DNA of 16,836 bases from Victivallales bacterium (GTDB lineage Bacteria; Verrucomicrobiota; Lentisphaeria; Oligosphaerales; Lenti-02): contig QKCY01000525.1 in assembly GCA_003245525.1 (NCBI GenBank), forward strand, positions 1 through 16,836, written 5' to 3'. Made by a program: the position numbers and the translations under genes. A model generated the notes under the pieces. It saw only the letters and a program-made list of their open reading frames with translations. It had not been told where the DNA came from and did no database searches. Below are positions 3 through 16,836 of this stretch, in pieces (positions within the stretch are counted from its first letter, which is position 1; every line of letters begins with the position of its first letter).

Positions 3-500
3 GTGCTCTTCCCCTTCTTCCCCCTACAGCGGAGTTTCCCTTTCTTCAACCACGCCACCTGGGGGATGTACACGACCCACCAGTCGATCTACTGGCGGAT
101 CCTGACCGGTTCCCTGTCCTCGCTGCTGGTCGGGGTCGGCCCCCAGGCGTTGTGCGGCATCTATCCGACGCTGGCGGACCCGGAGCACATCCGGGCCGTG
201 CTGGCCCAGTACGACCAGGCCTATCTGACCGAGAGCTTCTGCACCTACATGGATTCCCACAACGAATACCTGAACACCGGGGTCGCCTTCGGTCTTCCGG
301 CTCTGCTGGCCTGGATCGGCTTCTGGGTGGGACAGGCGGTGGCAGGGTTCCGCCGCCAGCGGGACGAGCTGGTGCTGTTCTTCGTGATTGGCCTGCTGTG
401 TTGCTGCCTGTGGGACGATCTGGCCAGCAAGCGCTGGATCTGGGTGACGGCTGCCCTCCTGGTGGGGAACGCGCGCCGCGAAGCGGAGCCGGTACCATGA
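3..500 (+). CDS. O-antigen ligase/polymerase family (Wzy_C-like) integral membrane protein, C-terminal fragment; the 5' end lies outside the window
   Basis: The frame is open from the window edge to TGA at 498-500. The translation is hydrophobic and multi-TM-like, with the motif HNEYLNTGVAFGLPALLAWIGFW, which resembles the H-[NS]-x-x-L...G-x-x-G signature of the O-antigen ligase/Wzy_C family. Its stop overlaps the next start (ATGA), so it is probably translationally coupled to the glycosyltransferase. Confidence 0.5.
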   Translation: MLFPFFPLQRSFPFFNHATWGMYTTHQSIYWRILTGSLSSLLVGVGPQALCGIYPTLADPEHIRAVLAQYDQAYLTESFCTYMDSHNEYLNTGVAFGLPALLAWIGFWVGQAVAGFRRQRDELVLFFVIGLLCCCLWDDLASKRWIWVTAALLVGNARREAEPVP

Positions 501-1234
501 GCTACGCGGTCATCACCATCTGCCGCAATGCGGCCGCGACCATCGCCCGGTCGATCCGTTCGGTCCAGGCTCAGACCGTGCCGCCCGCGCAATACATCAT
601 TGTGGACGGGGAGTCCACGGACGGGACTTTGGAAGTGGTCGCGGAACTGGCCGAGGGGATGCCCTCCGGCTGTGACTTCCAGGTGGTGCCGCAACCGCCG
701 CCACCGCCCGGCGTGGCCGGTATCCCGAATGCCTGGAATCTCGGGCTCGGACACATCCACGCCAACATAATCTTCCTGCTGAATGCGGATGACTGGCTGG
801 AACCGGACGCCGCCGAGACGGTGCTCGCGGCCTTTGCCGAAGCTCCCGAGGCCGGTCTGCTGACGTCTCCGATCCGGATTGTCGCGGACGACCGCCAATG
901 GCTCCTGCGGCCCCGTCCGCTCTGGCTCTTCCCCTTCCTGATGCCGGTCATGCATCCCGGCTGCTTCGTCCGTCGCTGGGTCTACGACCGGGTGGGCGAT
1001 TTCGACGAGCGCTACCGGATCTCGGCGGACTACGATTTCGCCTACCGCTGCTGCCGGGCCGGGATTCCCTTCCACTCTCTGTCCCGTCCTCTGGTAAACA
1101 TGCAATGGGGCGGGGCTGCCCGCCAGAACCTGCCCACGGCCCGGCGCGAAACGCTGGAGATCGCCCGGCGGCACTGCCGCGTGCCGGGACTCCCGTTCCT
1201 GGCCTACGCCCTGCGCCGGATGCTGGGAAGGTAG
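497..1234 (+). CDS. Family 2 glycosyltransferase (GT-A fold)
   Basis: ATG at 497 overlaps the upstream stop. The N-terminus reads MSYAVITICRNAAATIARSIRSVQAQTVPPAQYIIVDGESTDGT, which is the classic GT2 nucleotide-sugar binding start. A D-x-D-like motif follows (LLNADDWLEPD). The length is 245 aa and the stop is TAG at 1232-1234. Confidence 0.8.
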   Translation: MSYAVITICRNAAATIARSIRSVQAQTVPPAQYIIVDGESTDGTLEVVAELAEGMPSGCDFQVVPQPPPPPGVAGIPNAWNLGLGHIHANIIFLLNADDWLEPDAAETVLAAFAEAPEAGLLTSPIRIVADDRQWLLRPRPLWLFPFLMPVMHPGCFVRRWVYDRVGDFDERYRISADYDFAYRCCRAGIPFHSLSRPLVNMQWGGAARQNLPTARRETLEIARRHCRVPGLPFLAYALRRMLGR

Positions 1235-1240
1235 GGCGGA

Positions 1241-1406
1241 ACGATGGAATACTGGAATGCTGGAATCATGGGAATACGTCTAGCATCCATGTCCAGTATT
1301 CCACCATTCCATCATTCCAGTATTCCACCATTCCATCATTCCAGTATTCCACCATTCCATCATTCCAGTATTCCACCATTCCACCATTCCACCACTCCAT
1401 TCTCCC
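1241..1406. repeat. Low-GC intergenic repeat array. Four 8-bp NNNGGAAT units (1241-1280) are followed after a 12-bp spacer by about 4.5 copies of a 24-bp tandem unit, ccagtattccaccattccatcatt (1293-1388, degenerate to 1406). Each 24-bp unit is made of three NNNATTCC octamers, so the array is an inverted GGAAT/ATTCC architecture.
   Basis: Read directly from the sequence. Units 1293-1316, 1317-1340 and 1341-1364 are identical. Unit 1365-1388 has one substitution (ccaccatt for ccatcatt). The 1389-1406 stretch ccaccactccattctccc is a degenerate tail that runs straight into the asnB ATG at 1407. The upstream gatggaatactgg is the exact reverse complement of ccagtattccatc. This AT-rich segment sits in a genome that is otherwise about 65-70% GC. 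Confidence 0.9.
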
Positions 1407-3299: not shown

Positions 3300-3310
3300 A
3301 ATCTGGTACC

Positions 3311-5704
3311 ATGGACTCCCACGCACTTACGGTTCTTGAATTCCCGGCCTTTCTGGCCGAGTTGTCCTCCCAGGCGCAGACCGCGCTCGGGATGGCCCGC
3401 ATTCAGCGTTTCCACCCGGCCACCGGCATCGAGGAGATCGTGGCCCGGCGGAAACCTTACCTGGACACCATGCGGCTCTTCGCTGGCGGTGCCCATCCTC
3501 CCGGTCTCTGGTGCGAGGATATCGACGACGTCCTGCGCCGTCTGGCCCCGGCCGGATCGGCGGTGGACGGCGACGAGTTGGTGCGCTGCCGGGCGTTGCT
3601 CGACGCCTGCGCCGATGCCAAGAACTTTCTGCTCAGCGAAACCTGCCGCGATCTGCCGACCCTGATCGGCTGGGGCGATCTCCTTCAGGACGCGCCCGAA
3701 CTGCGCCAGGCCCTGCATCGGGCGCTGGACCACGACGGCACTGTCCTCGATTCCGCCAGTCCCCAGTTGGCCGAATTGCGTCGCCGCAGCCGTTCGCTGG
3801 AACGGCGCTTGCAGGAGACGCTGGACGAGATGACCCGGCAGACCGAGTACGAGAGCGTGATCCGCGACCGCTTCGTGACCGTGCGCAACGGGCGGTTCGT
3901 GATCCCGATCCGCCGCGAGCAGCGCGCCGCCCTGCCGGGCGTGGTCCACGATCACTCCAACAGCGGGCAAACCGTCTTTGTCGAGCCTACCGCCACGCTG
4001 CCCATGGGCAACGAATTGGCCGAGACCCGGCTCCAGGAACGGGATGAAATCCTGCGTATCCTCCACGAACTCTCCGGTCGGGTGCGGGCCATGATCCCGG
4101 GTCTGCGCACCAATCTGGAGGTGCTGACCGAACTGGACGTGGCCTTCGCCGTGGGTCGCTGGTCGGCGCGCGATGGCTGCCGGATGCCGCTCTTCGGGAA
4201 ACGGCTGAACATGCGGAGCGGTCGTCACCCCCTACTCGAGAAACAACTGCGCAGCGAGGGCAGGGGGGCGCAACTGGTGCCCCTCAGCCTGGAACTGCAA
4301 AAGGGGACACGGGTGCTGGTTATCACCGGCTCCAACACCGGCGGCAAGACCGTGGTGCTGAAGACCCTCGGCCTGCTGACCCTGATCGCCCAGTGCGGCC
4401 TGCCGGTGCCGGTGGGCGAGGGCACGGAACTGGAACTGTTCGACCAGGTACTGGCGGACATCGGCGACGAGCAGTCGTTGGCGGCCAGCCTGAGTACCTT
4501 CAGCGGGCATCTCAACCAGATCGGCCGGATTCTGGCCGCCGTCGGCCAGGGACGCAGCCTAGTCCTGCTGGACGAGTTGGGGTCGGGCACCGATCCCCTC
4601 GAAGGCGGGGCCCTGGCCTGCGCCGTGCTCAATGCCTTGTCCAGCCGCAGTGCCCTGACCTTGGCCACGACCCATCTGGGCGTGGTCAAGAACTATGCCC
4701 ACGAGCAACCCCACATGCTGAACGCGGCGGTGGCCTTCAACGTGGAGACCCTGCAGCCCGAGTACGTGCTGGAGGTGGGGCGTCCCGGGGCCAGCCATGC
4801 CTTGCAGATTGCCCGGCGTCTGGGTCTGCCCAAGCAAGTGGTGAACCAGGCCGAGCAGTTCCTGTCCTCCGATCATCTGCGCCTGGAAAGCATGCTGGCC
4901 AAGATCGAGGAGGATCAGCGCCGCATCGCCAGCCAGGAGAAGGAGGTGGCCGAGGCCCATCAGCGCATGGTGCGCGACCGCGATGACCTCAAGACGGAGC
5001 TCGATGGGCTGCGCAACGAGCGGCGGCGAATGCTCCACGATGCCTACCAGCAGGCGGCGGGTATCGTCGAGAACACCCGGCGGCAGATGGACGAGCAGCT
5101 TCGCGAGTTCCGTGGCCAATTGACCGATCAGAAGCAGAGCGAGCGGGCTGCCACGGCTGCCCGCGAGAAGCTGCGCTCCCGCAGCGAGAAACTCGCCGCC
5201 GGGGCCAAGGAAACCACGGAGAAACCCGGCAAGCCCGTGCGGGCGGACCGGCTCAAGGTGGGCGACCGGGTTCACGTGCCCCGTCTGCGCGGCAAGGGGC
5301 AGGTGGTGGACATTCTCGATGGCGGCAAGAAGGTCACGGTCGAAGTCGAAGGCTTGCGTTTCACTCTCGCGATCGCCGAGTTGGAGGCTGGCAGCGGCCA
5401 GCCCGAGGCGGAGGAAACCCAAGTGATGGTGAGCCGTCCCCGGGTGACCGGGAGGACGCCCACCGAGATCGTGCTGGTGGGGTCGCGGGTGGACGAGGCG
5501 CTGGACAAGCTGGACCTCTTCCTCAACCAGGCCATGCTGGCGAATATGGAAGAAGTCCGCGTTGTCCACGGCTTCGGTACGGGCCAGTTGCGGCGGGGCA
5601 TCCACGAATGGCTGCGCACCCAGCGTTCGGTGGCCCGTTTCCGCCTGGGCAAGCACGAAGAGGACCCCGGTGGCGCCGGGGTGACCATCGTCACGCTACG
5701 CTAG
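3311..5704 (+). CDS. mutS2: Endonuclease MutS2 (MutS domain plus C-terminal Smr domain)
   Basis: The start MDSHALTVLEFPAFLAEL aligns with the MutS2 N-terminus (B. subtilis MutS2 ...VLSALEFHKVKEQV...). Walker A is ITGSNTGGKTVVLKT and Walker B is LVLLDELGSGTDP. The C-terminal Smr domain reads IVLVGSRVDEALDKLDLFLNQAMLANMEEVRVVHGFGTGQLRRGIHEWL. I chose the ATG at 3311 rather than the upstream in-frame extension to 2771, which overlaps asnB. Stop is TAG at 5702-5704. Confidence 0.85.
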   Translation: MDSHALTVLEFPAFLAELSSQAQTALGMARIQRFHPATGIEEIVARRKPYLDTMRLFAGGAHPPGLWCEDIDDVLRRLAPAGSAVDGDELVRCRALLDACADAKNFLLSETCRDLPTLIGWGDLLQDAPELRQALHRALDHDGTVLDSASPQLAELRRRSRSLERRLQETLDEMTRQTEYESVIRDRFVTVRNGRFVIPIRREQRAALPGVVHDHSNSGQTVFVEPTATLPMGNELAETRLQERDEILRILHELSGRVRAMIPGLRTNLEVLTELDVAFAVGRWSARDGCRMPLFGKRLNMRSGRHPLLEKQLRSEGRGAQLVPLSLELQKGTRVLVITGSNTGGKTVVLKTLGLLTLIAQCGLPVPVGEGTELELFDQVLADIGDEQSLAASLSTFSGHLNQIGRILAAVGQGRSLVLLDELGSGTDPLEGGALACAVLNALSSRSALTLATTHLGVVKNYAHEQPHMLNAAVAFNVETLQPEYVLEVGRPGASHALQIARRLGLPKQVVNQAEQFLSSDHLRLESMLAKIEEDQRRIASQEKEVAEAHQRMVRDRDDLKTELDGLRNERRRMLHDAYQQAAGIVENTRRQMDEQLREFRGQLTDQKQSERAATAAREKLRSRSEKLAAGAKETTEKPGKPVRADRLKVGDRVHVPRLRGKGQVVDILDGGKKVTVEVEGLRFTLAIAELEAGSGQPEAEETQVMVSRPRVTGRTPTEIVLVGSRVDEALDKLDLFLNQAMLANMEEVRVVHGFGTGQLRRGIHEWLRTQRSVARFRLGKHEEDPGGAGVTIVTLR

Positions 5705-5766
5705 TCCCATTCCCGCAAGTACCGATATCGGGATATACCCAGTCTGCGGCCAAAGGCCGCTCTGGA

Positions 5767-5790
5767 GTGCGGTGCTCTGCACCGCTTTTC
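5767..5790 (+). terminator. Putative rho-independent terminator downstream of mutS2
   Basis: GCGGTGC-tct-GCACCGC forms a 7-bp GC-rich stem with a 3-nt loop and is followed by TTTT at 5786-5789. It lies about 60 nt after the mutS2 stop. A second small hairpin sits just upstream at 5746-5760 (gcggcc-aaa-ggccgc). Confidence 0.45.
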
Positions 5791-5965
5791 GTCCACGCTT
5801 GCCGTTGATGCACCGGATAGTCCTGTCTTTGGGCGGAAGCCGGGAAGGATCAAAGCAGCGCAGAGCGCCGCACCCCAAAGCGCCTCCGCAGGGGCGCAAG
5901 GCTCTTCTCCCAATGGGTACCGTTCCTTCAGGAACCTACGCATAGTGCTCGGGTTGCGAGCAGTC

Positions 5966-8900
5966 CTACTTGCCCGTGAGGTGCTGGCGGAGGTCGGCGA
6001 GGAGCTGACCCTGTTCGCGCATGGCTTCCATGATCGGCAGCAGGCTTTCGAGGATGAGCACCTGGCGGGACCAGGCGCGGCCGTACTCCGCCGGGAACGT
6101 GGTCTGCACTTCGAGCGCCCCGGTCGGCTGGCTGCTTTCCGGGGGACGGAGCGCCTGGAGGGCGGTCACGAGCGGAGCGAGGTCCAGGGGCTTGCCGAGT
6201 CGGTCGCGGACTTCGCCGAGGGCGGCGGCCAGGGGGTGAAGATCGACGCTGGCGCTCTGCTTTTCGGCCAGGGCGGAGAGCGCCGCCACCACGGGGGCGA
6301 AATCCGTGGCGGGAGGACGGTTCTCGCGGGCCGATTCGATGAGGGCGGCACCGAGCCGTTTCAGCCCCGTATCGAAGCCCTGTTCCAGGGAGTTGTGGAC
6401 GTGCCCCAGATTGGCGTTGAAGGCGGAGAGCTGGGCGAGGATCTTGCCCATGTCGTCGCTGTCGTCCACGCCGGAAAGGGCCTGGCGGCGGTTGAACTCG
6501 GTCTTGATCTCCTGCCAGCGGGTGCGCTCGTCGTCCGACTGCATCCCCATCATCTCCTTGAACTTGAGGATGTTGGCCTCGGCTCCGGTGGTCAGGGTCT
6601 GGGCCTCGTTGTAGTAGTGGTCGACCACGAGCTGGGTCACCTCGGCGTCGGTCATGACCGGGAAGACCTTCTCGGCCATGCGGCACATGTTGCGGTAGGA
6701 GCCCTGGAGCTTGAAGGGCGGTTCGGTACGGTATTCGTCCTGCTGGGCGGCGGACCGGATGTACTGCTGGTTGACCCGCAATACGACCTGCTGGATGCGG
6801 CGCAGCTTGCGCAGGACGTTCTGGATGTCGTCCGCCTCCGAGACGGACCAGGAGTAGGCGAAGTCGATGCCCTCGGTGGAGCCCGCCTCCACGGCCTGGA
6901 CGAAGCGATAGAGGTCCTCGTGGCTGTGGCTGGCGATCTCCGAGAGGGTCGCGTTCGAGGTCATGGCGTTCTCGATGAAGGAGAGGGCGAAGGCGCTGGC
7001 CGCCGTCTCCGAGATGTCGCCGAGGTTGTAGGTGTCGGCGCGGTTGGCGAGCATGTCGGGAATGCGGAACTTGGCACCGGACTCGGTGTAGGGGTTGCCC
7101 GCCATGACCACGGCGACCTTCTTGCCGCGCAGGTCGTAGGTGCGGGTGACGCCCCGGTACACGCCCTCGATCTTGCGCTGGGCGTCGCACAGGCTGATGA
7201 ACTTCTGGAGGAACTCCGGGTTGCAGTGTTGGATGTCGTCCAGGTAGACCATCACGTTGTTGGCCATTTCCAGGGCGAGATTGAGCTTGTGCAACTCCTC
7301 ACGGGCGGTGGCATTGGGTGCTTCGGCCGGGTCCAGGCTGGTGACGCCGTGGCCGATGGCGGGGCCGTTGATCTTCATGAAGGCCAGCCCGAGCCGGTTG
7401 GCGATGTACTCCATGAGCGTGGTCTTGCCGTAGCCGGGCGGCGAGATGAGGAGGAGCATGCCCATCAGGTCGGTGCGCTTGCTCTCGCCCGCCACGCCCA
7501 TCTGCTTGGCGAAGTTGGCCCCCACCAGGTTCAGATAGACGTCGTTGATGAGCTTGTTGCGCACGAAGGAGCCCATGACGCGGCTCTGGAACTCGCCCAG
7601 GCGCATCTCCCCGCGGCGCTGCTCGACGACATCGGCCCGCCGCCGGGCGTAGCGCCGGAAGCGCGGCACGCGGATTTGGGCGAAGTGGCTGAGCCGGGCC
7701 AGAAAGAGATCCAGGTGCAGGCTCAGCACCCGATTCTGAATCCGGGGATGCTGGCCCAGCAGGCCCTCGATGGTGGCCAGAGTGCTGACCCGCGAGGCGT
7801 CGCGGCTGATGATGTTCCCCGCCGCGACCAGAGCCACCACCTCCCAGACCAGATGGCCGGAGTCGGCGGGTTCCCGCACCTCGACGAAAGCGCCGACCCA
7901 GTCATGGATCAGGGCGATCCGGGCGGGCACGTCGGCAACGGTGGCAATCGCCTCGGCGAACCGCTTCTCCCGGCGGGCGTCGCGCAGGGCGGTGAGGAAG
8001 CGCTGGTGCAGCTCGATGGCCAGGGCGTTGACCGTGAACTCCAGGTTCTCCTCGTCCTGCAGCTCGTGGTAGAGGTACTCGGCGGCCTGGCCCAGCATGA
8101 CCGGACTGAGGTCCAACCCCATGTGCTCGTAGAAGTGCTCGACCAGAGTGCGGATCTCGGCGACGTACTCCTGGCGCACGGGCAATTCGCCGAACAGCCG
8201 GGGCAGTTGGCCGAAGGACTGCAGCCGCGTGCGCAGTTCGGCCTTGCGGGTGGCGTCGGGGTAGAAGCACCAGAAGATGATGGCGTAGGCCCGGCACTCG
8301 GAGTCGTAGCGCAGCAGCTTGCACTCCCCGTAGAGCCGGACAAGGTGGGGCAGGATCGTGCCTGCATCGGCGTCGTGGACGCCCTTCTCGTAGCCTTCGG
8401 TGTAGAGCCCGGCGGCGAACCGGCGGACTTCGGCCAACAGGGCCGCCCCATCCTCGACCAGTTCCGTCAGACGGGTCAGGGAGAGCTCGTTCCTGCCGAG
8501 GATAGCGGCCTGGAGCATCTGGTAGGCCAGGTACTCCGACCGGTAGACCTCGGGGGTCTCGCTCACCAGTTCCTGTTCCCACAGGTCGCGGCATTCCAGC
8601 AACTCGGGATCGTCCACCCGTTCCAGGAAATCGGTGCCGGTGAGGTGGAAGAACAGGTCGCCATCGCGATAGACCGTGGTCAGTTCCAGCGGCTGGGTGT
8701 TCACCGTGAAGTGGTAGTCGCCGAAGGAGATGACATTGTCGCCGCCCTTGAAGAGGTCGAGTTTGTCGCGCAGGCGGCGGATGATCTCGTCGCGGGCGCT
8801 CTTCAGGCGTCCGGTAAGGTCGTCGGCCTTCACCGACTCGCCCATGTCGTGGAGCTTGGCGATGTTCTCGCGCAGCTTGGCCACCATCATGTCCGAGGCG

Positions 8901-11302
8901 AAGTAGGCGTTGACCTCGTCGATGCCCTTGAAGCTCTCGGCCCGGTTGATGGCCCCCTTCAGAACCCGCTCCGCGCTGGCGACCATGGTGCCGACGCGGC
9001 GCTGACGCTGCTCGTCGAGCACCTGCTTGCGGGCGGAGAAGGCGCTGTAGGCCTCCTCGCGCTTCTCGGTGAGCTGGGCGACGTATTCGTCGTAGTCGGC
9101 GAATTTCCCTTCCAGCTCCTCGATGGTGACCATGACCTTGGTGAGGAACTCGTCGCAGCGGGCGACGGAGTCGCACATGCCGATGTAGTTGGTGATGGCC
9201 TGGCTGACCAGTTTGAACTGGGCGGCGAACTCGGCGGCGGCCTCCTCCTTACCCAGGTCCCGGCGCTGGTTGCGCAGGGCGGCACGGGTGCGGTTCACCC
9301 CGGCGTAGACCTCGGTGATGGCATCGACGATCTGGGTGGTCTGGGTGGCGTCCTCGATCTCCAGGTTGTTGACCACGTCGGTCAGCAGGTCGAGGCGGGT
9401 GGCCAGTTCCTCCAGTTTGGCGGCGGTGGCATCGAGATCGACCAGTTTGGCGATGCCGGGCAGGGAATCGGCGATCTGCTGGTTTTCCTGGCGGTAGGGA
9501 TCGAGGGCGTCGGGGCGGAGCAGGAACTTGGCGCAGGCGAGAGCGAGGACTTCGGCGGCTTCGCCCAGCTTCCGGTCCAGTTCGGCGATCCGGTTCCCGT
9601 CCGCGTAGCGCAGCTCGCGCAGGCTGATGACCTGGCCCCGGCGGGTGCGCAGTTCGCCCAGGCCCTCCACGAAATCGTCGATGTTGCCCATGCGGTCGGG
9701 CACGGCATCGAGCAGGCACTCGCGGACGGCGGCTTCGCTGGCGCTGATCTGCTTCTCCGTGGCGTTCCGGAGGTTGACCACCTTCTCGAACTCGCCGACC
9801 GCCGCCACGGCGGCGGCCTTCACCTGCTGGACGGTGTCCGCGACGTTCTCCGCCTCCTCCCGGCCCAGCCAGTAGTGGCCGTCGAGCATGTTGGTGGTGG
9901 CACGGATAAGGTCGTGGTAGGTGTAGAGCGTGACCGGTTCGGCCAGGGCGAGGCGGCTGACGGCATAGCCTTCGGAGACGGCGCGGACCAGATCGCGGTT
10001 GCCGATCTTGGCCAGGAAGGGATCGCCCTTGGCCTCGGGCTGGAAATCGTCGCTACAGAAAGGCGTCTGCCAGATCTGCATCGGGTGGATGCGCTTGGGC
10101 TCGTCGTCCGGGGCGCTGAACAGCACCATGCGCCCGTCGTCGTAGAGCGAATAGCCATGGCAGAAGATCGGGTTCGCCAACTGCTTGGTAATGAGGTTGT
10201 ACTGGAACAGCAGGTGGCGCCCTTGCTCGACATGGTAGAAGATGTAGAGGAAGTCCTCGCCGTTCGGGGAGGCGATGCTCTCCAGGAAGACCATCCCCGC
10301 CACATCCTCGTCGAAGAGCCGTTCGCCGCCATCCTGGAGGTAGTAGCCCTTGGGGAAGATGATGCCGTGGCTCTCGGGCAACTCCACGCAGGCCTGGGCG
10401 ATGGCGTCCACGCGCAGGGCGGTCTGCCGCTTCTCGTTGAAGATGAAGTGCCGCCAGACCTCCTCGCGGTAGGGGCGGATCCGCAATAGGATGAGTTCGC
10501 CCACGGTGGCGTAGTGGATCGCGGCGTCGTCCAGGGTCTGGTCGGGATTGTCGACCGGCTCGGAGTAGATGCCCTCGCCGGACTCCGTGTTGTCCTCGAT
10601 CTTGATGGTCAGATCGCCCTCGATGCATTCCACGAACACCCGGTCGAGGATGTTGATGTGGGGGTGCATGCCCTGCACCTGGTCGTCGCGGGTGGTGGGA
10701 TGCCATTCGAACTGCTGCTGGGGGGGCAGTTTGTACTCGGTCTCGCCCCGGTCGTCCACATAGGTCAGCGTGTTGTCGCGGGTAATGGAGAAACGGAAGA
10801 CGCGGATCTCGTTGGCGGTGTTGCCAACCTGGAAGATCAGCAGCAGTTGTCCCGTCTTCTTGATGAACTGGAGGAAGCGGGCGTTCTTGTAGTACTTGTA
10901 GAGTTCCCCGAAGTCCTTGCGGAAGCCGCCCTGGTCCAGCAGGTCCAGCCCCGCGTTGCGGAAGCCGTTGCCGTCGAACTCATGGACGCTGAACACGTCT
11001 TCGAGCTTGGTTTCGCTCTTCAGGCCGAGGTAGACGTTGTAGCCGAAGACCAGGGAACGTCCCACCCCCGTGATGTCGCGGGGCACGCAGTTGTTCTCGG
11101 TCGGGATGCGGTCGTTGCCGGCGATCTGGCTTTCCTGGCTGCCGAAGGTGCCCTTGCGCCGGGAATTGAGCGCTTCCAGACGGCGGATCAGCTCGCCGTT
11201 GAGCCCCAGCAGTCGTTTGTGCAGGACATCGTAGGCACCGCCGCCCAGTTCGGCCGACTGCTCGTCGGGGGGGGCAGGTTGGGTTGGTTCTTGCTCGGCC
11301 AT
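5966..11302 (-). CDS. Giant (about 1,778 aa) uncharacterised protein with one dynein/MoxR-type AAA+ (AAA_5-like) ATPase module near the C-terminus, a long N-terminal region and central coiled coils
   Basis: A continuous ORF on the minus strand with normal amino-acid composition. Walker A is LLLISPPGYGKTTL (nt about 7424-7444). Walker B plus the post-Walker-B loop reads VMVYLDDIQHCNPEFLQKFISLCD (nt about 7225-7260), which matches the AAA_5 pattern hhhhDEINRAxPEVLNALLSLLDE. Sensor-1 is VAVVMAGNP and an Arg-containing element is RIPDMLANRAD. The ATG at 11300-11302 is preceded by GGAG with a 7-nt spacer. An in-frame GTG at 11314 is an alternative start. The opposite-strand ORF 5945..10489 is a G/L/V/D/A-rich antisense artefact. 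Confidence 0.8.
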   Translation of the reverse strand: MAEQEPTQPAPPDEQSAELGGGAYDVLHKRLLGLNGELIRRLEALNSRRKGTFGSQESQIAGNDRIPTENNCVPRDITGVGRSLVFGYNVYLGLKSETKLEDVFSVHEFDGNGFRNAGLDLLDQGGFRKDFGELYKYYKNARFLQFIKKTGQLLLIFQVGNTANEIRVFRFSITRDNTLTYVDDRGETEYKLPPQQQFEWHPTTRDDQVQGMHPHINILDRVFVECIEGDLTIKIEDNTESGEGIYSEPVDNPDQTLDDAAIHYATVGELILLRIRPYREEVWRHFIFNEKRQTALRVDAIAQACVELPESHGIIFPKGYYLQDGGERLFDEDVAGMVFLESIASPNGEDFLYIFYHVEQGRHLLFQYNLITKQLANPIFCHGYSLYDDGRMVLFSAPDDEPKRIHPMQIWQTPFCSDDFQPEAKGDPFLAKIGNRDLVRAVSEGYAVSRLALAEPVTLYTYHDLIRATTNMLDGHYWLGREEAENVADTVQQVKAAAVAAVGEFEKVVNLRNATEKQISASEAAVRECLLDAVPDRMGNIDDFVEGLGELRTRRGQVISLRELRYADGNRIAELDRKLGEAAEVLALACAKFLLRPDALDPYRQENQQIADSLPGIAKLVDLDATAAKLEELATRLDLLTDVVNNLEIEDATQTTQIVDAITEVYAGVNRTRAALRNQRRDLGKEEAAAEFAAQFKLVSQAITNYIGMCDSVARCDEFLTKVMVTIEELEGKFADYDEYVAQLTEKREEAYSAFSARKQVLDEQRQRRVGTMVASAERVLKGAINRAESFKGIDEVNAYFASDMMVAKLRENIAKLHDMGESVKADDLTGRLKSARDEIIRRLRDKLDLFKGGDNVISFGDYHFTVNTQPLELTTVYRDGDLFFHLTGTDFLERVDDPELLECRDLWEQELVSETPEVYRSEYLAYQMLQAAILGRNELSLTRLTELVEDGAALLAEVRRFAAGLYTEGYEKGVHDADAGTILPHLVRLYGECKLLRYDSECRAYAIIFWCFYPDATRKAELRTRLQSFGQLPRLFGELPVRQEYVAEIRTLVEHFYEHMGLDLSPVMLGQAAEYLYHELQDEENLEFTVNALAIELHQRFLTALRDARREKRFAEAIATVADVPARIALIHDWVGAFVEVREPADSGHLVWEVVALVAAGNIISRDASRVSTLATIEGLLGQHPRIQNRVLSLHLDLFLARLSHFAQIRVPRFRRYARRRADVVEQRRGEMRLGEFQSRVMGSFVRNKLINDVYLNLVGANFAKQMGVAGESKRTDLMGMLLLISPPGYGKTTLMEYIANRLGLAFMKINGPAIGHGVTSLDPAEAPNATAREELHKLNLALEMANNVMVYLDDIQHCNPEFLQKFISLCDAQRKIEGVYRGVTRTYDLRGKKVAVVMAGNPYTESGAKFRIPDMLANRADTYNLGDISETAASAFALSFIENAMTSNATLSEIASHSHEDLYRFVQAVEAGSTEGIDFAYSWSVSEADDIQNVLRKLRRIQQVVLRVNQQYIRSAAQQDEYRTEPPFKLQGSYRNMCRMAEKVFPVMTDAEVTQLVVDHYYNEAQTLTTGAEANILKFKEMMGMQSDDERTRWQEIKTEFNRRQALSGVDDSDDMGKILAQLSAFNANLGHVHNSLEQGFDTGLKRLGAALIESARENRPPATDFAPVVAALSALAEKQSASVDLHPLAAALGEVRDRLGKPLDLAPLVTALQALRPPESSQPTGALEVQTTFPAEYGRAWSRQVLILESLLPIMEAMREQGQLLADLRQHLTGK

Positions 11303-11329
11303 GAACAGCTCCACGTGGCACGGAAAGGC

Positions 11330-11351
11330 GGGGAGCCGGAGCCGGCTCCCC
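11330..11351 (-). promoter_or_regulatory. Perfect GC-rich inverted repeat (hairpin) in the 67-bp spacer between the flotillin gene and the giant ATPase gene; a candidate intra-operon attenuator or processing site
   Basis: GGGGAGCCGG-ag-CCGGCTCCCC is a 10-bp perfect inverted repeat. On the transcribed (minus) strand it is followed by gccTTTCCgtg, a weak U-rich tract, and then by GGAG-N7-ATG of the giant gene. Confidence 0.4.
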
Positions 11352-11369
11352 GTGGACAGGGGGAAAGAC

Positions 11370-13451
11370 CTACTTCTTGGTCACTTGCGCGAGCAGGTCC
11401 TTGAGCTGCCCCATCACGCCTTCGCCGCCCTTGCTGGCAATCTTGGCGAGCAGGTTGGCCACGGTCAGGTTCTTCACGTCCTCGCTGCTGACGCCGGAGG
11501 TGGCGATCAGCTCGGCAAGCTGGGTGGCGATGTTGGCGCTGTCGCCCGCCACCAGCTTCTTGGCCTGGTCGCTCTTCTCCACGAAGCCGTCCACCGACTT
11601 GGCGAGACTGATGGACCGGAAGAAGTTCTCCAGGAAGGTGCCGTCGCCGCCCACGATGTCGATGTTCGCCTGGCGGACCGCTTCGCCCAGCACGCGGGCC
11701 TGGGCTTCGGCGATCTGGCGCTGGACGTCGATGCCGGCCAGTTCCACCCGCTCCTGCTTGGCCAACTGGAGCTTGAACTCCTCGTGTTCGCGGCCCACGC
11801 CGTCGAACTTCTTCATGGCGTCGGCCTTGAGGTCGATGGCCTTGGCCTCGGCTTCGCCGCTCTGCTCGATACCGAAGGCTTCCGCCTTGTGCTTCTCGAT
11901 CCCGGCATCGGCTTCGGCCTTGCCGCGCAGCACGATGGCGTTGGCCTCGGCTTCCTGCACCTTGACGTTGGCCAAACCAAGGGCGGATTCCTCGGCGATG
12001 ACGCCTTCGGCCAGCAGCTTCTTGGCCTGGGCTTCCTTCTCGGACTTGGCGAGGACGGCCGCGCCCTGCTTCTCGGCGAGCACCAGTTCGGCTTCGCCCT
12101 GCTGCTCGGCCTTGATGCGGATCGCCTCGGCCTGCCGCTGGATCTGCTCCTTCTCGGCGTCGGCCATGGTGATCTTCTCTTCGTACAGGCTCTTGGCGGC
12201 GCGCTCCTTGGACTCGGCCGCCTTGACCTCCTTGACCAGGAGCTGTTCGGCCTCGCGCTCGGCCTCGATGATCTGCGCCTTGCGCTCGCGCTCGGCCTCC
12301 ATGATACGCCGGGTGTCCTTGATGCGCTCCTCCTCCTCGGCCACGGTCTTCTCGACCATGACGCGCTCGCGGATCACGTCCTGGATGTTCTTCTTCTCGA
12401 CCTCGACCGCCTTCTCCTTCTCGATGGTCTTCAAGGTCACCAACCGCTCGCGCTCGACCACTTCGAGCTGGCGGTCGCGCTGGACGCGTTCCTCCTCGAT
12501 GGCGATGGCGCGCTGCTTGGCCTTCTCGGCGACGGCGATCTGGCGGTCCTTGTTCTCGACCGCGACCGCGACCTCCTCGTCGGTGGCCAGGGCGGCCTTC
12601 TCGGACTTCAGGCGTTCCTCTGCCTCGACCACGCGGGCGGAAGCGTTCTCGCGGGCCTGGATCTCGGCGATTTCGCGCTTCTTGCGCTCCTGGGCCTCGG
12701 CCCGCTGGCGCTCGAGCTCGGCGATGGTGGCGTCGGCCTCCACGTTCTGCTTGGTGATGACCTTGCGCTCGTTCTGCTTGGCCTCGTTGGTGGCCATGTG
12801 CTCCACGGCGGTGAGCTGGGTGATCTTGCGGATGCCCTGGCTGTCCAGGATATTCTGGTCGTCAAGGGAGGCGAGGGGGGTCTGCTCCAGGTAGTCGATG
12901 GCCACGTCTTCCAGGCGGTAGCCGTTGAGGTCCTCGCCGATCACCGTGATGATCTGCTCCTTGAAGCGCTCGCGCTCGGTGAACAGGGTAGTGAACTCCA
13001 TCTGCTTGCCGACCGTCTTCAAGGCCTCGGAGAACTTGGCCTGGAACAGCTCTTCCAGGGTGGCCTGAATCGAGGCGCGCTGGCAACCCACCGACTGGGC
13101 GACCTTGAGCACGTCCTCCTGGGTCTTGTTGACCCGGACGTAGAAGGTGACGCGGATGTCGGCGCGGATGTTGTCCTCGCAGATCAGGCCGTTGCGGCCC
13201 GACCGCTCGATCTCCATCCCCTTCACCGAGATATCCATGTACTCGGCCTTGTTGAAGATAGGAATCACCACGCCGCCAGTGAAGGTGACGGTATTGCCGC
13301 GGAAGCCGTTGATGATCAGGGCTTGTCCCTGGGCCACCTTGCGGTACATCTTCGCCACGAAGTAGATCACCGCGAAGAAGACGAAGCAGACGGCGGCGGC
13401 CCAGAGCAGGACGACTTGGTAGTAGAGGAGGGCGGGGGTGGGCAGTGGCAT
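11370..13451 (-). CDS. yqiK: Flotillin-family SPFH/band-7 protein, YqiK-like (N-terminal TM anchor, SPFH domain, long E/A-rich coiled coil)
   Basis: The N-terminus has a hydrophobic anchor LLYYQVVLLWAAAVCFVFFAVIYFV followed by AKMYRKVAQGQALIINGFRGNTVTFTGGVVIPIFNKAEY. This parallels E. coli YqiK ...ARLYRRASAEQAFVRTGLGGQKVVMSGGAIVMPIFHEI.... It is followed by about 330 aa of E/A/K/R-rich heptad-like coiled coil typical of bacterial flotillins. An AAGGAA RBS precedes the ATG at 13449-13451, and the stop is TAG at 11370-11372. Confidence 0.85.
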   Translation of the reverse strand: MPLPTPALLYYQVVLLWAAAVCFVFFAVIYFVAKMYRKVAQGQALIINGFRGNTVTFTGGVVIPIFNKAEYMDISVKGMEIERSGRNGLICEDNIRADIRVTFYVRVNKTQEDVLKVAQSVGCQRASIQATLEELFQAKFSEALKTVGKQMEFTTLFTERERFKEQIITVIGEDLNGYRLEDVAIDYLEQTPLASLDDQNILDSQGIRKITQLTAVEHMATNEAKQNERKVITKQNVEADATIAELERQRAEAQERKKREIAEIQARENASARVVEAEERLKSEKAALATDEEVAVAVENKDRQIAVAEKAKQRAIAIEEERVQRDRQLEVVERERLVTLKTIEKEKAVEVEKKNIQDVIRERVMVEKTVAEEEERIKDTRRIMEAERERKAQIIEAEREAEQLLVKEVKAAESKERAAKSLYEEKITMADAEKEQIQRQAEAIRIKAEQQGEAELVLAEKQGAAVLAKSEKEAQAKKLLAEGVIAEESALGLANVKVQEAEANAIVLRGKAEADAGIEKHKAEAFGIEQSGEAEAKAIDLKADAMKKFDGVGREHEEFKLQLAKQERVELAGIDVQRQIAEAQARVLGEAVRQANIDIVGGDGTFLENFFRSISLAKSVDGFVEKSDQAKKLVAGDSANIATQLAELIATSGVSSEDVKNLTVANLLAKIASKGGEGVMGQLKDLLAQVTKK

Positions 13452-13501
13452 GGAGAGTTCCTTTCTTCTCGGTCAACTGGGCTTGGATGAAACGCGTTGC
13501 G

Positions 13502-14281
13502 TCAGAGTTTGCGGACTTCGTAGGAGTCGGACTCGGCATGGTATTCCACAACCACCGCCTCGTCCCGCTTGCCGAGCTTCTCCTCTTCGGGAGCCCGGAC
13601 ATCGATGGTCAGGAACGACTCGCCCACGACCATTTCGGCCTGGCCGAAGGAGGGGGTGACCCGTCCGCTGCGGATACGGCAGATCTTGCCCACCAGATGC
13701 TCGTGGCCCCGCTGGGTGTGGCGCCGGAAGAAGCGGCGCAGGGGGCGGGTGCTGATGCCGGTGAGAACGAAGGCGACGACAAAGCAGACCGCCAGCACCG
13801 CCAGGAAGAACACGATGGGCGGCAGCCAATCCCGCAGCCACGCCGGGGCGTAGCAGGTGATGGTGTAGGCCTCGATCCACATGAAGGAGATCAGCAGGCT
13901 GAAAATCAGCGTGGCAGGCACCTCGCCGAGGTTGATGAAGCCCAGCACCGCGCGCAAGGCACTGCCAGCCCCCTCGGCAGCCCCTTCCGCCGCGCCTTCG
14001 GCAGCCCCTTCTGCTGCCGCCTCTGCGGCCCCTTCCGCGACTCCCTCGGCGACTCCCTCGGCCACCCCTTCCGCAAGACCTTCGGCCAAGCCTTCGGCGG
14101 CCCCCTCCGCCACGCCTTCGGCAGCACCATCCGCCGCGCCGAAGATGCCGTCCAGGAAGTCGAGGTCCAAGGCACCAATCAGGACGACCACCCAGTAGAG
14201 CAGCATGAGCAGCATCAACAGGGTGTAGAGCAACATGGACGGACCGAAGACGAGTTGCACGAACTCTCGGATGTTGTCCAT
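13502..14281 (-). CDS. yqiJ: YqiJ/NfeD-like inner-membrane protein (flotillin partner) with an inserted AEGxA pentapeptide-repeat linker and a C-terminal OB-fold-like domain
   Basis: The N-terminal TM helix ends in LIGALDLDFLD, compared with E. coli YqiJ ...GHMLSGALDAHLDH. There are two further TM segments. The C-terminus HLVGKICRIRSGRVTPSFGQAEMVVGESFLTIDVRAPEE parallels YqiJ [39 protein letters not shown]. It sits immediately upstream of the flotillin gene with a 50-bp spacer, which is the canonical NfeD-flotillin pairing. The RBS AGGAGC lies before the ATG at 14279-14281. Confidence 0.65.
   Translation of the reverse strand: MDNIREFVQLVFGPSMLLYTLLMLLMLLYWVVVLIGALDLDFLDGIFGAADGAAEGVAEGAAEGLAEGLAEGVAEGVAEGVAEGAAEAAAEGAAEGAAEGAAEGAGSALRAVLGFINLGEVPATLIFSLLISFMWIEAYTITCYAPAWLRDWLPPIVFFLAVLAVCFVVAFVLTGISTRPLRRFFRRHTQRGHEHLVGKICRIRSGRVTPSFGQAEMVVGESFLTIDVRAPEEEKLGKRDEAVVVEYHAESDSYEVRKL
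13962..14141. repeat. In-frame 15-nt tandem repeat, about 12 units, encoding (A-E-G-x-A)n within the yqiJ-like gene
   Basis: The + strand reads ccttcggcagcccct / tccgccgcgcct / tcggcagcccct ... with 15-nt periodicity. Its minus-strand translation is GAADGAAEGVAEGAAEGLAEGLAEGVAEGVAEGVAEGAAEAAAEGAAEGAAEGAAEGAG. The antisense + ORF 13881..14198 (APSAAPSA...) is the mirror artefact of this repeat. Confidence 0.8.
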
Positions 14282-14321
14282 TTCTCGCTCCTGGGGTTAC
14301 GGGGGGTCTTCAACCGTTAAC

Positions 14322-14350
14322 AGATTACGGCGAGCCACTCCGCTTTACAA
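14322..14350 (-). promoter_or_regulatory. Putative sigma70-type promoter for the yqiJ-yqiK-ATPase operon: -35 TTGTAA, 17-bp spacer, -10 TAATCT, read on the minus strand
   Basis: The minus strand reads TTGTAA (rc of 14345-14350), then agcggagtggctcgccg (17 nt), then TAATCT (rc of 14322-14327). This lies about 45 nt upstream of the yqiJ ATG. The -35 element is part of a 9-bp direct repeat GCTTTACAA (+ strand 14342-14350 and 14370-14378). Confidence 0.35.
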
Positions 14351-14409
14351 GGACCAAGCCTGCCTCCCGGCTTTACAATACCGCACCTTGTTTCCACCGC
14401 TGGAAAGGA

Positions 14410-15750
14410 CTAGCGGACGGAAAGGTCCAGCACGCGGAGCGCGCTGGGAGCCCCCGGTTTTTCCGGTCTATCCTGAGTGTAGACGGAGAGGATGCCCTCG
14501 TTGCGCCAGCGGTCCAGGTCGAGCAGGGGCTCGCCGACCGAGATCCTGTCCGCCTGCCAGACGGTCCGCCACTCGGTCCAGCCCGTGGACTCCGAAGCGA
14601 TGGCAACGGTCAGTCGGCTGCCGTGGTCCTGCCCGTGGTAGCGGCGGTCCTCGCCTTGGCCGTAGACCACGTAGGCTGTTCCCGCATCATCGACCACGAT
14701 CTGCGGTTTGCGCCCGTAGAAGGGCAGGGGATTGTCGTGCCAGACCCCGTCCGGGTCCCGCCAATAGTGGTAGTAGCGCCAAGTGTTGAGGTCCGTGCTG
14801 GCCGTCGGGGCATCCTGTTGCTGCTGCCAGTTGATCACGTGGACCCGGCGGCGGGCATCGATCCACTGGGTGGTCGTGTTCATCTGTCCCCAGAGGTAGC
14901 GGGTGGTCTGGACGACGGTTCCCGGCGTGGCGATACTGATCCCCGTACTCTTCCCGTCCAGGACCGCGATGGTCTGCCCGGCGTTGTTGCACCAAGTGCG
15001 TCCCCGGTCGTCGCTGTAGGCGTAGCAGACGTCGTGGTTGGTGCGCAGGTCGCGGATGCCCTCGCGGGGACGCTCGCGCCAGCACCAGGTGATGTGCAGG
15101 CGATGGTTGGGACCGTAGCGGACGGGATTGGGGTACGCACTGCGGGAGGAGCTGGTCTCGTACTGTCCGGCGCGGGAGAAGAGCATGCCGAGTACCTGCC
15201 AGCCCGCCGCGCCGTATTCGGCCAGGTACCAATCCCCATCGCCGGAGGCACCAAGACGGTAGAGGAGTTGGAGCTTGCCCTCGGGCGTGGCAAAGAACTG
15301 GGGATAGGTGACCGGGTTCAGGGGCTGGCCGGGCACCAGCGCGGAGGTGGTGGCTCCGAACAGCGAGGCGTTCCACGCGAAGTCGCCGGGCCGTAGAGCC
15401 ACTTCCGGTACCGACCGGCGGTAGTGGAGCGGATGTCCGTGGTGGTCGAAGGAGAGATGGATCGTGCCATCCTGGGGACAGATGCCGATCACGGCCACGT
15501 TGTGGACATCGTCGTGATGGATGGCGTAGTCGGCGAAATGGATGGTCTCCCACGGGCTGTCGGGCAACTGCCGCCGCGCCACGGCCAGCACCCCGCCGTC
15601 CGCGAAATAGGCTGCGTATTGGCAGCCCCGGAAGGAGACCACGGCCTCCTGCTGGAAGGTCTGGCCGTTGATGCAGGTGCCAAAGGGACCGCTCGGCAGA
15701 TTCAGGGCTGCCGCGTCCACCACCGAATCGCCCACCCGTTCCACTGTCAT
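14410..15750 (-). CDS. BNR/Asp-box repeat beta-propeller protein (BNR_4-like); putative polysaccharide lyase or glycoside hydrolase
   Basis: The protein is 446 aa and contains the Asp-box YSDDRGRTW (S-x-D-x-G-x-T-W). Aromatic/His-rich propeller-like segments include HHDDVHN and HLSFDHHGHPLHY. The RBS AAGGAG sits 8 nt before the ATG at 15748-15750. It lies 24 bp downstream of the partial hydrolase gene, so the two are probably co-transcribed. Confidence 0.55.
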   Translation of the reverse strand: MTVERVGDSVVDAAALNLPSGPFGTCINGQTFQQEAVVSFRGCQYAAYFADGGVLAVARRQLPDSPWETIHFADYAIHHDDVHNVAVIGICPQDGTIHLSFDHHGHPLHYRRSVPEVALRPGDFAWNASLFGATTSALVPGQPLNPVTYPQFFATPEGKLQLLYRLGASGDGDWYLAEYGAAGWQVLGMLFSRAGQYETSSSRSAYPNPVRYGPNHRLHITWCWRERPREGIRDLRTNHDVCYAYSDDRGRTWCNNAGQTIAVLDGKSTGISIATPGTVVQTTRYLWGQMNTTTQWIDARRRVHVINWQQQQDAPTASTDLNTWRYYHYWRDPDGVWHDNPLPFYGRKPQIVVDDAGTAYVVYGQGEDRRYHGQDHGSRLTVAIASESTGWTEWRTVWQADRISVGEPLLDLDRWRNEGILSVYTQDRPEKPGAPSALRVLDLSVR

Positions 15751-15774
15751 GGGGCCGTCTCCTTATGCCCGGCG

Positions 15775-16836
15775 TTAGGGAGCGGCGACAGTCAGGATGC
15801 GGGCGAAGCGCAGGCGGACGGGACCGAGCAGGCCGGAGGGCAGCAGGGGATCGCCCGCGCGGTAGTGCTTCCAGGTGGTCCAGGTGATGCGGCCGGTGTC
15901 AGGTGGCGGCGTGTTGTTCAGGGCATCCGGCGGCCAGGACTTGAGGGCGGCACCGCCCCAGTCGCGGTAGTCGGGCTTGGCCTCGTCGCCGATGAGGCGG
16001 TTTGGCCAAAGGTTGGTGACCCGCACCTGAAGGGTGTTCATTCCCGGTTTCAGGCCGTCGGTGACGTCGACCCGGAACGGCGGCTTCCAGAGGATGCCCA
16101 GAGGCGTGCCGTTGAGGACGGGTTCGGCGATCACCTGGACCTGGCCCAGATCGAGCATGGCCTTGGTGCCGGGCTGGCAGGCTTCAGGCGGAACCGTGAA
16201 GGCCAGTTCGTAGGTGGCGGTGCCGGAGAAGTGCTGCACGCCCTCGTCGGGATGGGTGGTCCAGGAGATCAGCTTGGGGAGGGAGACTTTGGTGGGAGCC
16301 CCAAGGTTGGGGGGGAAGCGGAGCGTCCAGGGACCGGCCAATGGCACCTCGGCAGGCGGCGCGGCAGCCGTCAGTTGGCGGCTGGTGCCATCGGCAAACT
16401 GAACTTGGAAGTCGCCCTTGTCCCAGGCCACGAGATGCAGTTGTCCGTCCGCCACGGCCAGTTCGCCGGGCTGCCAGGCGGGGGCCTGGGAGAGGGGCAG
16501 TTCCAGCAAGGCGTTTTCGCCCAACGTCATCTCACCGGGCATGCCATCCACGGCGTACTCCACATGCAATTGCTTGCGGATATTGGGGGCAGGATCGCCC
16601 GCGATCTCGTTGCCGGTCCGGACCACGAGGTGACCATCGCGGATGCGCTGGCGCAGGGCTGCTTGCAGGGGGCCATCCGGAATGTCGCCGTACGCGGCGC
16701 GGCGAATGAGGAGGGTGCCTTGCTGGCCTTCCGGCGGCAGGCGGAGGGTCTGGTTCTCGCCCACACTTGCCCGCAGGGGCTTGCCGTCGAGTTCGTACTC
16801 CACCACCATCCGCTTGACGACCTGGTTTGCGGGATC
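15775..16836 (-). CDS. Glycoside hydrolase, C-terminal portion (GH2/GH106-type C-terminal jelly-roll/carbohydrate-binding domain); the 5' end lies beyond the window
   Basis: The minus-strand frame is open from the window edge to a stop at 15775-15777. The C-terminal segment DLGQVQVIAEPVLNGTPLGILWKPPFRVDVTDGLKPGMNTLQVRVTNLWPNRLIGD matches the conserved C-terminal domain seen in GH2/GH106 (alpha-L-rhamnosidase-type) hydrolases, which reads ...V.VNG..VG..W.PPYRFDIT..LK.G.N.L.I.V.N.W.NRLIGD. The family assignment is tentative. Confidence 0.5.
   Translation of the reverse strand, partial: DPANQVVKRMVVEYELDGKPLRASVGENQTLRLPPEGQQGTLLIRRAAYGDIPDGPLQAALRQRIRDGHLVVRTGNEIAGDPAPNIRKQLHVEYAVDGMPGEMTLGENALLELPLSQAPAWQPGELAVADGQLHLVAWDKGDFQVQFADGTSRQLTAAAPPAEVPLAGPWTLRFPPNLGAPTKVSLPKLISWTTHPDEGVQHFSGTATYELAFTVPPEACQPGTKAMLDLGQVQVIAEPVLNGTPLGILWKPPFRVDVTDGLKPGMNTLQVRVTNLWPNRLIGDEAKPDYRDWGGAALKSWPPDALNNTPPPDTGRITWTTWKHYRAGDPLLPSGLLGPVRLRFARILTVAAP

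Follow-up and report, generated by a model that had tools for sequence, protein, structure and literature searches.

A YqiJ/NfeD-like protein, a YqiK-type flotillin and a giant AAA+ ATPase: a conserved three-gene module in a Victivallales bacterium and its relatives across bacterial phyla

The locus considered here raises the question of whether a giant AAA+ ATPase gene that follows a pair of flotillin-type genes is a functional partner of that pair or a chance neighbour and, if it is a partner, what the three products might do together. The genes lie in a stretch of 16,836 nucleotides (nt) from a Victivallales bacterium (assembly GCA_003245525.1, contig QKCY01000525.1, positions 1-16,836, forward strand), hereafter the window, which has a G+C content of 65%. 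Its minus strand carries three co-oriented open reading frames (ORFs) in the order small gene, flotillin, giant ATPase. From their translations, gene 1 (13502-14281) encodes a YqiJ/NfeD-like membrane protein of 259 amino acids (aa) and gene 2 (11370-13451) a YqiK-type flotillin of 693 aa; gene 3 (5966-11302, counted from an ATG), defined by its translation and Pfam matches, encodes a cytoplasmic AAA+ ATPase of 1,778 aa. Spacers of 50 nt and 67 nt separate the small gene from the flotillin gene and the flotillin gene from the giant gene, respectively. An initial annotation of this DNA had described the three genes with the same strand, coordinates and spacing, and both the ORFs and the sequence agree with it. 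The giant ORF can also be read from a GTG (5966-11314, 1,782 aa); the ATG at 11302 is taken as the start because the N-termini of homologues match it. The closest relative of the giant protein (P0001, 96% identity) is likewise 1,778 aa long.

Conservation of the three-gene module

A scan of species representatives, with one genome per species, found relatives of the giant protein in at least 584 genomes. The 80 best loci of that scan form the synteny set, and the 67 of them with at least 3.5 kb of upstream sequence are the informative ones. The 80 loci come from Lentisphaerota, Planctomycetota, Bacteroidota, Myxococcota, Desulfobacterota, Verrucomicrobiota, Kiritimatiellota, Acidobacteriota, Gammaproteobacteria, Actinomycetota and Clostridia. 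A flotillin orthologue lies directly upstream of the giant gene, on the same strand, in 65 of the 67 informative loci, from about ten phyla, and in 62 of the 67 the small gene is also present, upstream of the flotillin. All-against-all clustering returned the trio as the only universally shared families, the other large clusters being frame shadows. At many loci the three genes abut or overlap, and in an 81%-identical relative (L084) the trio is intact and every flanking gene is different from those of the window. Because order and strand are the same across phyla, the flanks change and the genes abut, the adjacency is a conserved autonomous module. The coupling of the flotillin/NfeD pair to the giant ATPase, which the initial annotation had proposed from this locus, is thereby borne out, and its caveat that the adjacency might be fortuitous does not hold. 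The setting between variable glycan loci to which the same annotation had pointed is not a conserved context.

The trio is also found on plasmids and megaplasmids, and it occurs in the cultivable genera Pseudomonas (including plasmid pQBR103), Myxococcus, Hymenobacter, Proteus and Vibrio. Databases hold more than 3,500 homologues of the giant protein; full-length ones measure 1,650-1,900 aa, identity across phyla is about 45%, and the AAA core is nearly invariant. For the flotillin, majority identity is 60-80% over 69 orthologues from many phyla. Judged from these identities, both proteins are under strong purifying selection.

Some variation is seen around this common plan. A sensitive hidden Markov model search for the small YqiJ-like gene found none in loci L001, L020, L036, L039 and L066. 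The Pontibacter locus L010 has two small lipoprotein-like ORFs between the flotillin and ATPase genes (6621-7707), and several other Bacteroidota loci have flotillin-ATPase spacers of 0.5-1.6 kb whose content is not conserved. A conserved fourth component was considered and rejected: the L010 ORFs are not conserved, and the ORFs of a further candidate, "cluster 18", are low-complexity frame shadows.

Relationship to a published operon class

The initial annotation presented the three genes as an undescribed system. This was mistaken, for the trio is already contained in the computational study of Ravi et al. 2024 (mSystems, PMC11237479; bioRxiv 2020), where it appears inside CesT/Tir-PspA operons and in a widespread "abbreviated" three-gene form without PspA. 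That study gives the operon one paragraph, in which chaperone-like or membrane-dynamics roles are proposed. The window trio very probably belongs to the same operon class: the three domain architectures (YqiJ/YuaF, band-7/flotillin, and beta-propeller with coiled coil and AAA+), their order and their orientation are the same. Bacteroidota loci of the synteny set match the full form as published, down to the divergent cHTH-protease regulator, and their architecture equals that of the Dokdonia donghaensis row (ANH61663.1) in the supplement of Ravi et al. The window differs from the full form in that the CesT/Tir-PspA dyad and the regulator are missing, which makes it an example of the abbreviated form; among the 80 related loci, PspA is found in 16 and CesT/Tir in 10. 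The window trio is thus the Lentisphaerota-type example of an operon class known from computation. Beyond Ravi et al., the present work adds a recurrent stem-loop after the flotillin gene, a D-D Walker B motif in the ATPase, a variant with a rhomboid gene and a quantitative account of synteny. Since the association had already been flagged, the value of the analysis lies in consolidation and in pointing to experiments. A survey of SPFH proteins in P. aeruginosa does not cover the trio, and a 2025 review calls the role of the band-7 partners of PspA "undetermined" and notes that bacteria have no known Vps4-like ATPase. No publication came up in literature searches for DUF3686, for "DNA repair ATPase" together with flotillin, or for SPFH proteins with anti-phage function.

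The gene for PspA/IM30 (Pfam E 1.5e-53), where it occurs, lies immediately upstream of the small gene, and the 16 loci concerned are from Bacteroidota and Pseudomonas. In ten Bacteroidota loci, genes for a CesT_Tir_1 protein (E 8.6e-56) and for a divergent helix-turn-helix (HTH) regulator come before PspA; the Hymenobacter record annotates the regulator as LexA family. The order in Hymenobacter and other Bacteroidota is accordingly LexA-like regulator, CesT/Tir, PspA, DUF1449, SPFH, ATPase. A census of the nearest genes on both sides of the trio (134 ORFs) counted PspA_IM30 15 times, rhomboid four times and PLD twice; the rest were singletons, mostly housekeeping genes, and PspA/IM30 is the only recurrent neighbour. 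No ORF for PspA or CesT/Tir was found in the window.

Plasmid pQBR103 of P. fluorescens SBW25 (L082; NC_009444.1, 84437-97641) places the trio directly behind a yjfIJKLMC-like PspA/polyamine string, composed of YjfI, PspA, rhomboid, DUF2491, DUF350, DUF1190 and a glutathionylspermidine-synthase-like gene. On the opposite strand after the trio of this plasmid there is a gene of the MvaT/MvaU family. The ATPase gene is followed directly, on its own strand, by a rhomboid gene in L031 (13193-13756), L050 (13238-13732) and L060 (13198-13761), and a PLD-family gene takes the same position in L040 (13161-13847) and L051 (13408-14094). The loci with rhomboid or PLD followers are gammaproteobacterial (Pseudomonas, Xenorhabdus).

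The flotillin and its small membrane partner

The flotillin is composed of an N-terminal transmembrane (TM) segment, an SPFH/Band_7 domain (aa 38-185), a long coiled coil rich in E, A and K, and a C-terminal region that is conserved; in the translation the N-terminus can be seen to be hydrophobic. When aa 1-249 were searched alone, Pfam Band_7 was matched with E 1.9e-10 (41.5 bits against a cut-off of 23.6). The full-length protein has no Pfam match, and this miss of Band_7 is probably due to coiled-coil bias. In BLASTP the alignment of the flotillin with E. coli YqiK extends over 455 aa, with 28% identity (E 3e-37). The match to NCBIfam FloT is weak, the Pfam Flot domain was not detected in the C-terminal part, and a sequence search against solved structures gave no match. 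With Band_7 after a membrane anchor, an E/A-rich coiled coil and homology to YqiK, the protein has the features of an SPFH/flotillin of the YqiK-FloT type, as had been read from the translation at the outset.

Gene 1 specifies a protein in which a disordered acidic (A-E-G)n linker separates a first TM helix from two more, and which ends in an OB-fold domain of NfeD type (about aa 198-259). The AlphaFold2 (AF2) model, with an overall pLDDT of 80.7, shows the TM helices, a C-terminal domain of five strands and the (AEG)n linker as disordered, with pLDDT below 50 at aa 72-102. A profile of the small-protein family aligns with E. coli YqiJ in hhalign (83%, E 8.9e-6), and some homologues are named "DUF1449" or "OB-fold-containing" by NCBI. 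In Pfam, the window protein has no match to YqiJ_N, YqiJ_OB or NfeD at the curated threshold, and among 32 homologues YqiJ_N was found in seven (best E 0.0024) and YqiJ_OB in one (E 0.0084), all below threshold. Because the Pfam scores are sub-threshold while the profile matches YqiJ and the C-terminal domain has an NfeD-type OB fold, the small protein is assigned, from these comparisons, as a divergent YqiJ/NfeD-type relative and not as a Pfam-defined member. The earlier description of a YqiJ-like membrane protein with an OB-fold tail is therefore upheld by fold and profile, though not by Pfam. Membership in the NfeD/YqiJ group is further indicated by the position of the OB-fold after TM helices and by that of the gene, which is directly upstream of the SPFH gene with a 50-nt spacer in the window. 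By the positive-inside rule, the OB domain and a basic segment, RPLRRFFRRH, are predicted to face the cytoplasm.

The acidic linker between TM1 and TM2 is encoded by an imperfect 12/24-nt tandem repeat (13966-14140, minus strand; Tandem Repeats Finder: period 24, seven copies, 73% matches). Its length varies widely among homologues, from a few repeats to more than 25, and its role may be that of a tether or spacer of variable length that joins the first two TM helices.

The arrangement of the first two genes is that of E. coli yqiJK and B. subtilis yuaF-floT, in which an NfeD/YqiJ-type gene, with an NfeD OB-fold like that of YuaF, directly precedes a YqiK/FloT-type flotillin gene. Unlike the trio, the E. 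coli pair has no third gene, and yqiK is followed by sibD/ibsD. Compared with E. coli YqiK and YqiJ, the flotillin of the trio is about 140 aa longer, and the small protein has the (AEG)n linker and falls below the Pfam YqiJ thresholds.

The giant AAA+ protein

The N-terminal helix of the giant protein leads into a beta-propeller and then a spectrin-like helical rod; after these come a small beta domain, a domain of helices, one AAA+ module with its lid and a C-terminal tail of low conservation. Its Pfam matches are a single AAA module, DUF7902 and, with E 7.6e-186, DUF3686, which Pfam titles "ATPase involved in DNA repair". The propeller domain corresponds to DUF3686 (aa 41-481 in the numbering from the GTG; 9872-11194, minus strand) and was recognized by Pfam, AF2 and Foldseek. 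The rod (about aa 425-846 from the ATG; 8765-10030, minus strand) includes DUF7902 and is built of spectrin-repeat-like bundles with helices of up to 58 residues. In an AF2 model of aa 1-1196 (pLDDT 82.9), the N-terminal helix is followed by an all-beta region (59-412) and by long helices that span some 420 residues (429-850), after which come a small beta domain and another domain of helices. Foldseek matched the beta domain to kelch, WD40, prolyl-oligopeptidase and PON1 propellers with probabilities of 0.98-1.0. In the full-length proteins (1,600-1,930 aa) of the best 150 clusters, out of 707 representative ones at 50% identity, the propeller is N-terminal. The initial annotation had suggested that a fold search might uncover sensor or effector domains in the N-terminal part; the propeller and rod were seen, but the Foldseek matches are to generic propellers and spectrin-like bundles, with no functionally informative relative.

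The nucleotide-binding core of the AAA+ module (7085-7456, minus strand) is defined by Pfam AAA and AAA_5 matches and by invariant columns. Both PF00004 (30.2 bits, E 7e-7) and AAA_5 (24.4 bits, E 3.1e-5) score above their cut-offs. The size of about 1,778 aa and the single AAA module had been correctly recognized in the initial annotation; its AAA_5 (dynein/MoxR-type) label was not sustained, since generic AAA scores higher and the similarity in the Protein Data Bank (PDB) is to the P-loops of p97, VAT and RuvB. The protein also differs from MoxR/RavA (AAA_5) proteins in its 1,778 aa, against a typical 300-500 aa for MoxR, and in its partners, for no gene with a VWA domain recurs in the neighbourhoods of the giant gene. 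Walker A (SPPGYGKTT) is invariant, and Walker B (VYLDDIQH) has an invariant D-D pair where D-E is canonical, with no catalytic Glu. The sensor-1-like N in MAGNPYTE and the R in MLANRAD are both invariant, their sensor and finger roles being assigned by eye. The segment after Walker A, NGPAIGHxVTSLDPAEAPNATAREE, is nearly invariant. Pfam finds no protease domain and the protein has no TM segment; no DNA-binding, nuclease or helicase domain was detected with Pfam or Foldseek, and no MIT domain or homology to Vps4 with Pfam or a PDB search.

The stem-loop and the promoter region

The spacer between the flotillin and giant genes contains a GC-rich stem-loop, GGGGAGCCGGCTCCGGCUCCCC (11330-11351, minus strand), which starts 19 nt past the flotillin stop and has a 9-bp stem with a centroid energy of -22.9 kcal/mol; it is the hairpin that had been noticed in the initial annotation. 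It is followed by CCUUUCC with no U-run and was not called an intrinsic terminator in a terminator scan. At the equivalent position (about 9912-9937) of the 81%-identical relative there is likewise a stem, of 11 bp and with a different sequence. More generally, of the 30 loci with a spacer of 20-300 nt, 14 have a stem of 10 bp or more past the flotillin stop, against 2.7% of shuffled sequences and 7.5% of coding segments. These stems are found in unrelated phyla, and their sequences are not homologous. Such a recurrent element probably sets the flotillin:ATPase stoichiometry, through partial termination or protection of the mRNA 3' end, in favour of the scaffold.

Upstream of gene 1 there is a 128-nt spacer (14282-14409, minus strand) that is a putative promoter region. 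The sigma70-like promoter ascribed to the cluster in the initial annotation was not recovered: a consensus scan of 5500-14600 finds none, and by eye the spacer offers a weak TTGTAA-17-TAATCT.

Proposed function and its alternatives

SPFH proteins form large cages, and in HflK/C-FtsH, in prohibitin with the m-AAA protease and in SLP2-PARL-YME1L, SPFH scaffolds organize or enclose AAA+ machines. The reading favoured here, which is held to be somewhat more probable than all others together, is that the trio is an abbreviated band-7/YqiJ/AAA+ module for membrane stress or membrane remodelling, in which the ATPase acts on the flotillin scaffold or on its clients. The flotillin and its NfeD-type partner, through the OB domain of the latter, would build a large cage or patch of SPFH protein against the inner membrane, on its cytoplasmic side, and the soluble AAA+ protein would dock on this scaffold through its propeller and rod. 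ATP hydrolysis would then drive the remodelling, disassembly or recycling of the scaffold, or of PspA-type polymers or clients held there, under envelope stress. Expression of the ATPase relative to the flotillin scaffold would probably be lowered by the stem-loop, and a PspA encoded elsewhere in the genome from which the window comes may cooperate with the module. The link to membrane stress is drawn because PspA/IM30 is the sole recurrent neighbour of the trio and because the trio is fused to a PspA operon on pQBR103. Of the roles listed in the initial annotation, membrane remodelling and envelope stress fit this context; the anti-phage role, weighed below, does not.

Confidence falls as the mechanism is specified. 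The remodelling mechanism just outlined, whether its target is the scaffold, PspA polymers or clients, has a slightly less than even chance of being right. The fullest version is doubtful: the giant protein would be a hexameric ATP-driven remodeller, docked by its propeller on flotillin cages, that disassembles flotillin and, where present, PspA/ESCRT-III-like polymers, with the stem-loop setting the ratio of scaffold to motor. If this were true, bacteria would possess a functional counterpart of Vps4 or of FtsH-HflK/C, built from an unrelated AAA+ lineage. The trio shares with ESCRT-III/Vps4 (and with PspA-PspF) an AAA+ ATPase that is linked, by context in the 16 loci, to PspA/IM30 of the ESCRT-III superfamily. 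It differs in having no detected MIT domain or Vps4 homology, in that most loci are without PspA, and in that the constant partner is the flotillin. With the HflK/C-FtsH-type hubs it has in common an SPFH scaffold and an AAA+ ATPase at the membrane, and the rhomboid of some gammaproteobacterial loci recalls SLP2-PARL-YME1L. The trio ATPase, in contrast, has no protease domain or TM segment, carries a propeller and rod and is of a different AAA+ lineage; the likeness is functional and not one of ATPase homology. Flotillins and PspA/IM30 (ESCRT-III-like) form large membrane assemblies in bacteria, and the trio bears on their dismantling and recycling; cultivable hosts make the remodelling question testable in standard organisms, with pQBR103 as a ready experimental system.

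Several observations weigh against the membrane-stress and remodelling reading. PspA is absent from 64 of the 80 loci and from the window, so that the PspA link is contextual and belongs to a minority of loci. From the sequence of its D-D Walker B, robust hydrolysis is not assured. In the NGPAIGHxVTSLDP segment, examined by eye, no classical aromatic pore-loop motif is seen, which weakens the case for threading of the unfoldase type. Profile and sequence searches against the PDB gave similarity to p97, VAT, Rix7, NSF and RuvB in the P-loop region only, and the AAA clade of the giant protein cannot be assigned in this way. Finally, in L036 (a Cytophagaceae metagenome-assembled genome, MAG) and L039 (a Desulfobacteraceae MAG) neither a flotillin nor an NfeD gene adjoins the giant gene. 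Upstream of it there is a 7TMR-DISM/SpoIIE phosphatase in L036, and a STAND NTPase with a TPR protein in L039.

The absence of a protease domain and of a canonical aromatic pore loop also bears on the nearest rival of the remodelling reading, client-directed quality control, to which perhaps one chance in five might be given, well below that of the membrane-stress module. The flotillin cage would here be passive and would not itself be remodelled, and the ATPase would extract, unfold or hold damaged membrane proteins or lipid-bound clients, which a rhomboid or PLD protein would cleave where present, in the manner of HflK/C-FtsH or SLP2-PARL-YME1L. The rhomboid or PLD genes directly 3' of the ATPase gene, the rhomboid of the pQBR103 string, the fact that beta-propellers commonly bind peptides or proteins and the precedents for SPFH-AAA protease pairs all speak for such a role, but rhomboid and PLD are found in few loci. 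A different kind of explanation, also entertained in the initial annotation, makes the flotillin/NfeD pair a membrane sensor or effector and the large NTPase a switch in anti-phage defence or abortive infection. An autonomous module that occurs on plasmids and megaplasmids would suit this explanation, although this shows mobility and not defence; pQBR103 has a DNA methyltransferase upstream and a PLD protein downstream, and a few flanking genes match the PADLOC models SspH, mad2, mad8, MkoB and a DrmC-like PLD. The trio proteins themselves, however, gave P-loop noise only against PADLOC models (best E 0.0013). About ten of the 134 nearest neighbours match PADLOC at E <= 1e-8 with no recurrent family, in a census that carries no formal enrichment statistic, so that the neighbourhood search which confirmed co-occurrence with SPFH/NfeD genes returned only scattered matches in place of enrichment near defence genes. 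Neighbours are mostly housekeeping or metabolic genes, and the one consistent neighbour is PspA. Slow evolution, with about 45% identity across phyla and uniform architecture, is unlike that of typical fast-diversifying defence genes, and tblastn found no homologues in 50,697 phage records. Defence is on these grounds very unlikely, and it was rejected as the lead hypothesis when neither PADLOC (trio and 134 flanking genes) nor the phage search gave a signal.

Still less probable, to the point of being hardly credible, is the role in DNA repair that database names imply, with the flotillin adjacency incidental. It draws on the Pfam title "ATPase involved in DNA repair" and the NCBI name "DNA repair ATPase", on weak P-loop similarity to RuvB and on MutS2 being the next gene downstream in the window. 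The similarity to RuvB, however, is confined to some 45 residues around Walker A and does not exceed that to p97, and the giant protein is without detected DNA-binding, nuclease or helicase domains. MutS2 is convergent and is not a neighbour at other loci, and no repair genes recur in the flank census. No paper was found that uses the DUF3686 name, or the "DNA repair ATPase" name with flotillin, and the genes conserved alongside the giant gene encode membrane proteins. The repair label seems to have been taken from the Pfam title and is probably a misnomer. The last alternative, that the genes are fortuitous or merely co-transcribed neighbours with no functional coupling of ATPase and flotillin pair, is effectively refuted by synteny. 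The intergenic stem-loop could in principle terminate transcription, and L036 and L039 have no flotillin beside the giant gene; against this stand the hairpin's want of a U-tract and of a terminator call, the order and strand kept in all but those two of the informative loci, in about ten phyla, and the stop and start codons that overlap or abut in many loci.

Flanking genes in the window

Downstream of the trio, a MutS2 gene (MutS_V and Smr domains) converges on it and is itself preceded by genes for an asparagine synthase and a GT2 glycosyltransferase. The longest MutS2 ORF (2771-5704, plus strand) gives 977 aa from an ATG at 2771 and shares 529 nt, read in another frame, with the asparagine synthase ORF (1407-3299, plus strand). 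In the MutS2 ORF, matches to MutS domains begin at aa 306, and the true MutS2 start is therefore probably further downstream, near or after 3299. The convergent MutS2 and giant genes are separated by a gap of 261 nt, which holds an unconserved ORF of 80 aa (5701-5943, minus strand). A terminator-like hairpin with a T-run lies 3' of MutS2 (5769-5785, plus strand), and about 95 nt past the stop of the giant gene (about 5850-5872, minus strand) there is a weaker hairpin of 7 bp with TTTG after it.

Upstream of the trio, at 14410-16809 on the minus strand, there are genes for a BNR_4 family protein (E 1.4e-67) and a rhamnoside jelly-roll protein (E 6.1e-48). The two look like a polysaccharide-degradation pair unrelated to the trio, and the BNR_4 protein has weak similarity to the alpha-L-rhamnosidase BT3686.

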